42,072 nt of DNA from Shigella phage phiSD1. Position numbers and translations under genes: made by a program. Below the pieces are notes generated by a model. The model saw only the letters and a program-made list of their open reading frames with translations, had not been told where the DNA came from and did not search any database. Shown here one piece after another: positions 24,030-24,397 of the stretch. Each line of letters begins with the position of its first letter. Position 1 is the stretch's first letter. Location: the sequence record PQ571306. One strand, given 5' to 3'.

Positions 24030-24042
24030 TTCCTACCCGTGG

Positions 24043-24086
24043 TATCCTCCAGTTACCGCATACTTAATACGCACCTGGAGGATTCA
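24043..24086 (+). promoter_or_regulatory. Inverted repeat (ATCCTCCAG ... CTGGAGGAT) sequestering the holin RBS
   Basis: 9-bp arms about 22 nt apart; 3' arm contains GGAGGA immediately upstream of the holin start; coordinates +/-1. Confidence 0.45.
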
Positions 24087-24088
24087 TC

Positions 24089-24397
24089 TTGGATAAATTT
24101 ACTGAAACAGTGACAGGCTGGCTTCTGGCTGCCGCACTAGCTGGTGGGGTAATCGGACTACGACAGCATAAGTCCGCTATTTCCGGGCCTATCGACGGCT
24201 TCTGCTTTATTGCAACTGGCTTCACCTGCGCCGTATTTGGCGCACCTCTCGCAGCTCAATGGTTTGGTATTACCGGTGAGCGCGAGATAGCTGGCCTCGG
24301 ATTCATCATTGCCATTCTCTGGATGCCTATCTATTCCCGCCTTTCTGGCATCGTATCGGGCGGCGATATTGCCCGCCCAGGAGGACCGCATGACTGA
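24089..24397 (+). CDS. Holin-like membrane protein
   Basis: Multiple hydrophobic segments, charged C-terminus, directly upstream of endolysin. Confidence 0.5.
   Translation: MDKFTETVTGWLLAAALAGGVIGLRQHKSAISGPIDGFCFIATGFTCAVFGAPLAAQWFGITGEREIAGLGFIIAILWMPIYSRLSGIVSGGDIARPGGPHD

Follow-up and report, generated by a model that had tools for sequence, protein, structure and literature searches.

The first holin gene of Shigella phage phiSD1 (record PQ571306; the whole stretch of 42,072 nucleotides (nt) is called the window below) is preceded by a perfect 9-bp inverted repeat (24044–24052 and 24075–24083), the 3' arm of which contains the Shine–Dalgarno (SD) sequence of that gene. Our results are best explained if this repeat works at the RNA level, as a functional cis-element in the lysis cassette of Kagunavirus. 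The reading is carried by the anatomy of the repeat, its conservation, substitutions that preserve pairing specifically in RNA, and terminator homologues in front of related holin genes; from these we infer both hairpin formation in vivo and any effect on lysis timing.

In the mechanism that we propose, RNA arriving from upstream genes with both arms present would fold into a hairpin with 9 bp and about −12 kcal/mol. Since its 3' strand is the holin SD, 30S binding at an already weak TTG start would be hindered; in relatives, the hairpin would also terminate the read-through RNA. A transcript from a promoter nested in the element would begin near 24055, in the loop, and would lack the 5' arm, leaving the SD free. 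The holin would then be translated from this short transcript, with the read-through RNA remaining locked, and the 22-nt loop would form the 5' leader of the short holin mRNA. We place this full model, an arrangement like that of T4 gene e, at slightly under an even chance; that the hairpin reduces translation of the holin from RNAs in which both arms are present is a narrower claim, which we regard as fairly probable.

An earlier note on this DNA had described a 9-bp inverted repeat with about 22-nt spacing, carrying GGAGGA in its 3' arm and ending 5–6 nt before the TTG, and our analysis confirmed this layout, with TCATC as the spacer between the 3' arm and the TTG at 24089. In a repeat search of 23500–24700, it was the sole inverted repeat of at least 8 nt with a separation of at most 60 nt. 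The folding energy, which the earlier note had left to be calculated, is −12.0 to −12.7 kcal/mol for the isolated hairpin, and the 71-nt region 24030–24100 reached a minimum free energy of −18.1 kcal/mol (z = −2.39), with 5 of 200 shuffles equally good. In a 190-nt long RNA, the bases of the SD, the spacer and the start codon were computed to be unpaired with a mean probability of about 0.24. Rfam 15 covariance models gave no match at 24030–24100 and only two weak unrelated matches (E > 0.1) in 23800–24300. Across the window, 11 perfect 9-mer inverted repeats with 3–40 nt spacing were counted, against 7.05 ± 3.7 in dinucleotide shuffles; the count is not above chance at this scale, and the bare repeat was dropped as proof of function. 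It is judged non-random because it lies on the SD, because it is conserved, and because diverged lineages have kept a hairpin at this site.

Conservation was assessed in about 60 Kagunavirus loci from IMG/VR, metagenomes and GenBank, some contigs being present in two collections; L numbers are our own locus labels, and bases are cited by the last two digits of their coordinates. None of the Kagunavirus sequences examined differed in the core pairs 24044–24050/24077–24083. In a 3.3-kb alignment, conservation was highest in two stretches, 24029–24118 (identity 0.93–0.99) and the terminator block 25169–25228 (0.97–0.99), with the coding flanks at 0.62–0.96, mostly about 0.8–0.9. The block around the hairpin also persists when its upstream portion does not code for protein, as in fBC-Eco01, and even then the 25 nt preceding the 5' arm hardly vary. 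Variation in and around the stem was sparse: A51 to G in L039 yields a G·U pair, T53 to G in L032, L083 and L084 adds a G–C pair, and in LSPA1 the loop is remodelled (6 of 22 positions altered) and the stem lengthened to 13–14 bp. No relatives were found in prophages or bacterial genomes.

Main-type Kagunavirus shows hardly any variation in the 22-nt loop and the first ~15 codons of the holin gene, but the diverged locus L103 does without this loop sequence. An invariant loop makes more sense as the leader of an mRNA than as part of a hairpin, and the short-leader idea accounts in part for the invariance of the loop and first codons; an alternative for the block as a whole is recent recombinational spread at the module junction. 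Within the holin gene, codons 1 to ~15 (24089–24135) showed a synonymous-site conservation of 0.94–0.998, compared with about 0.86 in the rest of the gene. A small hairpin, UUACUG-AAA-CAGUGA, is predicted at 24099–24113 and is reminiscent of the downstream stem-loop of lambda S.

Holin homologues beyond the genus were gathered by tblastn, pattern scans and a large protein search, and their contexts were then read. L103, whose holin is 71% identical, keeps the GGAGGAT arm and has ATCCTCTGG as its 5' arm, in which C50 to U and A51 to G replace the C–G and A–U pairs of the window with two G·U pairs; its loop is unrelated and shorter, its stem has 12–13 bp and its tail is UUUAUUUU. The G·U changes in L103 and L039 keep pairing in plus-strand RNA only, not the symmetry of the DNA or pairing in a minus-strand transcript, and therefore point to an RNA structure on the plus strand. 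The helical sequestration of the SD suggested by the earlier note is upheld at the level of structure: the whole SD lies within the stem, and the stem is conserved and behaves as RNA.

These substitutions bear directly on the view that the complementarity is incidental or serves at the DNA level, the arms being kept separately (as promoter −10 and SD) or jointly as a protein-binding site, with no functional RNA hairpin. The arm centres lie 31 bp apart on the same helix face, each arm has an independent candidate function, and the chance frequency of perfect 9-bp repeats at such spacing, as well as the lack of double compensatory changes within Kagunavirus, agree with such a view. It is opposed by the G·U-only substitutions, by the retention of hairpins of unrelated sequence at the same site elsewhere, including a paired C/G insertion in L062, and by the fact that the motif is found nowhere else in the genome, unlike the real repeated palindrome of the phage. 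We consider it very unlikely.

Hairpins of different sequence were found at the same pre-holin position in Dhillonvirus, L062, KW1E, L110 and L105; all of them carry an SD-like, purine-rich run in their 3' arm. In Dhillonvirus (HK578, SO-1, WF5505 and about 25 further loci), the arms GTCCCAGTGAG and CTTACTGGGAC enclose a 6-nt loop and are followed by T6 and then ATG. In L105 (holin 50% identical), the arms ATCCCCCGTG and CACGGGGGAT flank a loop of 13 nt, a T-rich tail follows, and the start codon is TTG, while KW1E and L110 have TCCCCGGA/TTCGGGGA and ATCCCCAAA/TTTGGGGAT, respectively, with tails of T6–T8; in L062, the paired insertion consists of a matched extra C and G. A MAFFT alignment paired the Kagunavirus CGTG(G/C)TATCCTCC with the Dhillonvirus CGTGATATAGTCCC, forming an alignable CGTGnTAT..TCC stretch. 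The terminator scan classed the hairpins of HK578 and KW1E as terminators, and a terminator is also annotated at this position in the WF5505 record.

By these features, the hairpin is terminator-like in L103, L105, Dhillonvirus and the KW1E-like lineage, canonically so in Dhillonvirus and KW1E, and the window hairpin is the homologue of the terminator that abuts the holin start in these sister lineages, a homology overlooked in the earlier note. Dhillonvirus and KW1E-like phages share with the window a homologous holin (34–53% identity), the hairpin position, the purine-rich 3' arm and a −10-like hexamer at the 5' arm, but they have 3–7-nt loops, T6–T8 tails and ATG starts, where the window has a 22-nt loop, a broken U-tract, GGAGGA and TTG. 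The window version is the least terminator-like: its termination features (loop, U-tract) have decayed, and its SD/anti-SD pairing has been kept and, with GGAGGA, even strengthened.

A residual role in RNA 3'-end formation, pausing or stability has to be weighed at this point, in which a leaky intrinsic terminator would lower upstream read-through into the lysis cassette and the SD overlap would be secondary. The homologous tails contain 6–8 T in 8 nt in L103, L105, Dhillonvirus and KW1E, the window tail TTCATCTT retains 5 in 8, and L103 unites the GGAGGA arm with a good U-tract. Such a role is nonetheless quite unlikely in the window, where the U-tract is interrupted, the two base pairs adjacent to the tail are A–U and U–A, and the 22-nt loop exceeds the short loop (about 3–8 nt) of an intrinsic terminator. 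The hairpin was not called by the terminator scan, which misses stems with a loop above 8 nt (e.g., 25193–25224), and none is annotated at this site in the deposited fBC-Eco01 record, where terminators were predicted by ARNold.

More distant holin homologues (Ounavirinae-type; L047, L107–L109, L102) were not counted as support, since their SD lies outside the hairpin or terminator and the order of promoter and hairpin differs. In the Ounavirinae-like contigs L107 and L108 (about 945–990), a hairpin between a tail-fibre gene and the holin homologue, with the SD outside it, shows a compensatory T–A to C–G change (GGGTATCG/CGATACCC versus GGGCATC/GATGCCC). Automatic gene calls push two holin homologues upstream through the hairpin, in L105 (1501–1545, to a GTG in the loop) and in L106 (1001–1115, to a far-upstream ATG); the true starts are likely the TTG or ATG right behind the T-rich tail.

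The second component of the proposed mechanism is the candidate promoter nested in the 5' arm (TGnTATCCT), preceded by a weak −35-like hexamer that is also conserved where the stretch is non-coding (fBC-Eco01, L103). Among 41 unique sequences, T40, G41 and T43–T48 were invariant, with T40, G41 and T43 lying outside the 9-bp stem, and the 'n' between them (24042) was the most variable site of the block (G in 22, C in 19). In seven sequence-distinct lineages, a TAnnnT hexamer overlaps or abuts the start of the 5' arm, ending 0–5 nt into it. Five of them (Kagunavirus, L103, L105, Dhillonvirus, L062) have the TGn extension, in the forms TGnTATCCT, TGnTATAGT and TGnTAATAT; KW1E and L110 have in its place TTGACC, 17–18 nt before TAnnnT, and in KW1E the scan called TTGACC-17-TACTAT, ending one base ahead of the terminator stem. 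The chance of TGnTAnnnT in a 13-nt interval is about 1–2% per lineage. Given the usual distance of 7 nt from the −10 hexamer, +1 is predicted for the window at A24055; across the lineages it lies either in the loop or in the distal half of the 5' arm (in most lineages, among the last three positions of that arm). In RNA starting at the predicted +1, without the 5' arm, the computed SD-to-start opening energy falls from 11–18 to 5.5–5.9 kcal/mol; one such comparison gave 11.3 kcal/mol for the long RNA and 5.8 for the short one.

A full terminator immediately before the ATG in relatives leaves no room for a promoter between the two, so that a start site inside the hairpin is the simplest route to holin expression there. 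TGnTATCCT would be read as an active promoter with a start site near 24055. The −10-like element at the 5' arm in every lineage, which had escaped the earlier note, suggests that the translated mRNA may start inside the hairpin. A precedent is galP1 (TGnTATGGT), an extended −10 promoter that needs TGn and is active without a recognisable −35 element (PMC2613000). TGnTATCCT matches it at the same positions (TG, T-12, A-11, T-10, T-7) and likewise has an A/T-rich stretch upstream, but galP1 has been tested and depends on CRP or the upstream A/T tract, whereas the site here is a sequence match. Reading by eye revealed no acceptable sigma-70 hexamer pair within the loop or on the minus strand. The loop was also considered as a repeated late-promoter motif and rejected as such: its 16-mer (up to 3 mismatches) occurs only here, and the CGTGnTATCCTCC block does not recur beyond chance.

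Several points weigh against the proposed model. TATCCT matches four of six −10 positions and TTAGGA three of six −35 positions, and the promoter scan did not call the site. The motif has no recurrence elsewhere in the genome and no sign of belonging to a late-promoter family, and a second −10-like hexamer, GATAAT (24025–24030), would start RNA upstream of the hairpin. Because the −10-like hexamer overlaps the 5' arm, the hairpin itself accounts for part of its conservation; the lineages are related by descent, and their common geometry cannot be counted as seven separate observations; and the nested promoter and the 5' end of the holin mRNA are predictions from sequence. As for the hairpin, T76 to C in L067 breaks a pair and leaves one mismatch, and none of 15 pairs shows a double compensatory change within Kagunavirus, although covariation is lacking since the stem is simply invariant, which speaks neither for nor against structure. 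Finally, the opening energy of the holin initiation region, 12.6 kcal/mol, ranks 16th of 63 gene starts. With that rank the holin was rejected as an outlier in occlusion of its ribosome-binding site, although the unpaired probability of its SD is about the fifth lowest.

The earlier note had proposed translational occlusion as the control of lysis timing, i.e., a static attenuator: every holin mRNA would carry the hairpin, there would be no nested promoter, and the hairpin together with TTG would slow holin synthesis, delaying the critical concentration and lysis. The part of this claim that stands is that the hairpin covers the whole SD; it is also conserved, with G·U-preserving changes, and the promoter-like match is weak and uncalled by the scan. 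In lambda, reduced holin translation delays lysis, and an upstream stem-loop gates the SD (bioRxiv 10.1101/2025.05.14.654169). Timing itself is another matter, as a static hairpin only lowers the translation rate and cannot time lysis alone, and the initiation region is not unusually closed for this genome. A static attenuator leaves unexplained the near-invariant loop and the 25 nt upstream of the 5' arm, even where non-coding, as well as the invariant T43 and TG outside the stem with their variable 'n'; holin still has to be made in homologues in which a full terminator directly precedes the ATG. We regard the static attenuator as unlikely, but as a live competitor.

The invariance of the loop in main-type Kagunavirus, which a passive loop would not need, is also the argument for a regulated RNA switch. 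Here the hairpin would open, or be stabilised, in response to temperature, a small RNA or an RNA-binding protein from phage or host, with the loop as recognition site. We hold this to be highly improbable: L103 has an unrelated sequence in place of the loop, LSPA1 has an altered one, Rfam gave no match, and a C/U-rich candidate small RNA encoded downstream does not prefer the holin start, which ranked 37th of 67 as its predicted target, so that a trans-acting link between the two was rejected. A perfect G/C-rich 9-bp stem is also unlike the known RNA thermometers.

The proposed model has its closest counterpart in T4, where a hairpin masks the ribosome-binding site of gene e (lysozyme), soc and I-TevI on early read-through RNA, and a late promoter lies within the region coding for the 5' strand (PMC3014915). 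As in gene e, a lysis gene is concerned, same-strand transcription would enter it from upstream, the 3' strand of a helix contains the SD (all of GGAGGA is computed to be in the stem of the long transcript), and a promoter-like element, whose transcript would lack the 5' strand, is found in the DNA coding for that strand. The T4 late promoters (TATAAATA), however, are experimentally mapped and dependent on phage factors, whereas the element here resembles a sigma-70 extended −10 with no sign of being late. T4 protects the endolysin and not the holin, and homologues that are also terminators are not described for T4 e.

In lambda S, the upstream stem-loop (sdi) controls ribosome access to the holin/antiholin SD (bioRxiv 10.1101/2025.05.14.654169). 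Both stem-loops lie directly upstream of the holin start and include the SD, and in lambda the translation rate sets the lysis time. The lambda structure differs in splitting initiation between two in-frame starts (Met1, Met3); the window has a single TTG at 24089, and the next start codon in frame, a GTG at codon 8, has no SD. As far as tested, there is no homology between the two proteins (the window holin matches PHROG 2359 and no Pfam family).

The window represents Kagunavirus (Guernseyvirinae), and this region shares 96.8% identity with Escherichia phage SZH-1. Locally, small open reading frames (ORFs) are followed by the genes for an HslV-family peptidase, a holin (PHROG 2359), a second holin (PHROG 2508) and an endolysin (PF00959), in this order; coordinates are given in the table below. 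The first holin has no Pfam match and bears its name by annotation only. The likely source of the read-through RNA entering the holin gene is the promoter-like site at 22565–22593, which is overlapped by a palindrome (AATAG-N4-CTATT, 22581–22594). The scan found no convincing terminator, i.e., no terminator-like site with a real stem, in 22593–24044; upstream RNA should therefore carry both hairpin arms, and read-through RNA of this kind from the adjacent same-strand genes is plausible. The one RNA-seq study of a Kagunavirus that was found (PMC12645636) grouped the lysozyme gene with 'middle' genes, with no 5'-end resolution and too coarsely to bear on the 'early' class that the earlier note gave the upstream genes, and the start-site information in the fBC-Eco01 paper consists of predictions only.

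Table. Positions of the hairpin, candidate promoter elements and surrounding features in the window
Feature	Position	Strand	Remarks
Hairpin 5' arm, ATCCTCCAG	24044–24052	+	holds anti-SD CCUCC
Hairpin loop, 22 nt	24053–24074	+	nearly invariant in main-type Kagunavirus, conservation 0.97–0.99
Hairpin 3' arm, CTGGAGGAT	24075–24083	+	SD GGAGGA inside, 24077–24082
Degenerate U-tract, TTCATCTT	24084–24091	+	5 T in 8, interrupted; runs into TTG start codon (24089–24091)
Extended −10-like element TGnTATCCT	24040–24048	+	hexamer 24043–24048; overlaps first 5 nt of 5' arm
Weak −35-like hexamer TTAGGA	24021–24026	+	putative; 16 nt upstream of −10-like hexamer; TTAAGA in many relatives
Terminator	22292–22313		promoter-like site 22565 comes just after
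Promoter-like site TTGCAC-17-TACTAT	22565–22593	+	8/12 match, below scan threshold; putative function
HslV-family peptidase gene	23592–24029	+	directly upstream of hairpin; PHROG 1040, E = 1.7e-34
Holin gene, 102 aa, TTG start	24089–24397	+	three predicted hydrophobic segments; PHROG 2359 'holin', E = 1.4e-31
Second holin-like gene	24390–24662	+	ATG overlaps end of first holin; PHROG 2508 'holin', E = 1.1e-34
Endolysin (phage lysozyme) gene	24625–25128	+	Pfam PF00959, E = 2.4e-25
Strong intrinsic terminator closing the lysis unit	25193–25224	+	8-bp stem, 9-nt loop, T8; sequence reading
Palindrome AATAG-N4-CTATT sites	115, 12156, 15728, 17844, 17888, 21312, 22265, 22581, 25242, 33855, 33946, 42046

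About one third of Kagunavirus relatives have the peptidase gene upstream of the hairpin (alignment coverage ~0.31 over 39 relatives); it is an optional insert and is absent in fBC-Eco01. It lies exactly between the stop of the upstream ORF (ending at 23595) and the conserved hairpin block, and its final ~20 nt are homologous to non-coding sequence of genomes without the gene. At the other end of the cassette, the computed opening energy of the endolysin start (24625), 19.9 kcal/mol, is the largest among the 63 gene starts; its overlap with the end of the second holin gene suggests translational coupling within the cassette.

The best sigma-70 match of the region, TTGACA-17-GATACT (25125–25153), has the endolysin stop codon inside its −35 and is followed about 40 nt later by the terminator at 25193–25224. 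In the predicted RNA of ~65 nt from 25125–25224, the 5' half is unstructured, C/U-rich and anti-SD-like, and a hairpin and U8 come after it, as in small RNAs of the Hfq type; the block is conserved at 0.93–0.99; Rfam gave sub-threshold small-RNA matches only (RF02278, 25 bits against a gathering score of 50). Alternatively, the block could be a late promoter and terminator requiring antitermination, like lambda pR'-tR'.

The palindrome AATAG-N4-CTATT occurs 12 times (up to 1 mismatch) against 1.0 expected, and 0 of 100 shuffles reached this number. The five sites read in sequence (22265, 22581, 25242, 33855, 33946) are all intergenic, and the palindrome overlaps the −10 of the promoter-like site at 22565 and the −35 of another at 25247. 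The fBC-Eco01 paper described this motif as a 'phage RNA polymerase promoter', but the annotation of the close relative SZH-1 includes no RNA polymerase gene, and an operator for a phage helix-turn-helix regulator seems more likely. The palindrome is absent at the holin hairpin and was rejected as a regulator site there.

Extending the proposed model across lineages, a compact pre-holin 'double-lock' module may be common to Kagunavirus, Dhillonvirus, KW1E-like phages and two metagenomic lineages of virulent E. coli siphoviruses. In such a module, a promoter would sit in a hairpin that both terminates upstream transcripts and masks the holin ribosome-binding site, and evolution would slide between the two locks, the lineage of the window having lost termination and kept masking, with the loop as the conserved leader of the true holin mRNA. 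We offer this generalization tentatively and consider it rather doubtful.

Holins are lethal, and holin dose sets the time of lysis. As the lysis cassette lies within a long array of same-strand genes, some device must stop upstream transcription from making holin too early, and the hairpin is probably an ordinary kind of safety lock against a lethal lysis protein expressed from upstream transcripts. The principle is already known from T4 and lambda and will little surprise the specialist; the element went unmentioned in the literature found on Kagunavirus lysis genes, and nothing was found for Dhillonvirus either. For a genus widely isolated as a source of therapy candidates, the hairpin element would be a concrete answer to the problem of premature holin synthesis, and its arm pairs, the TG and the TTG start would be the bases at which lysis time could be tuned in engineered phages. 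The series from terminator to masking across lineages would offer a natural example of one hairpin working at two regulatory levels.

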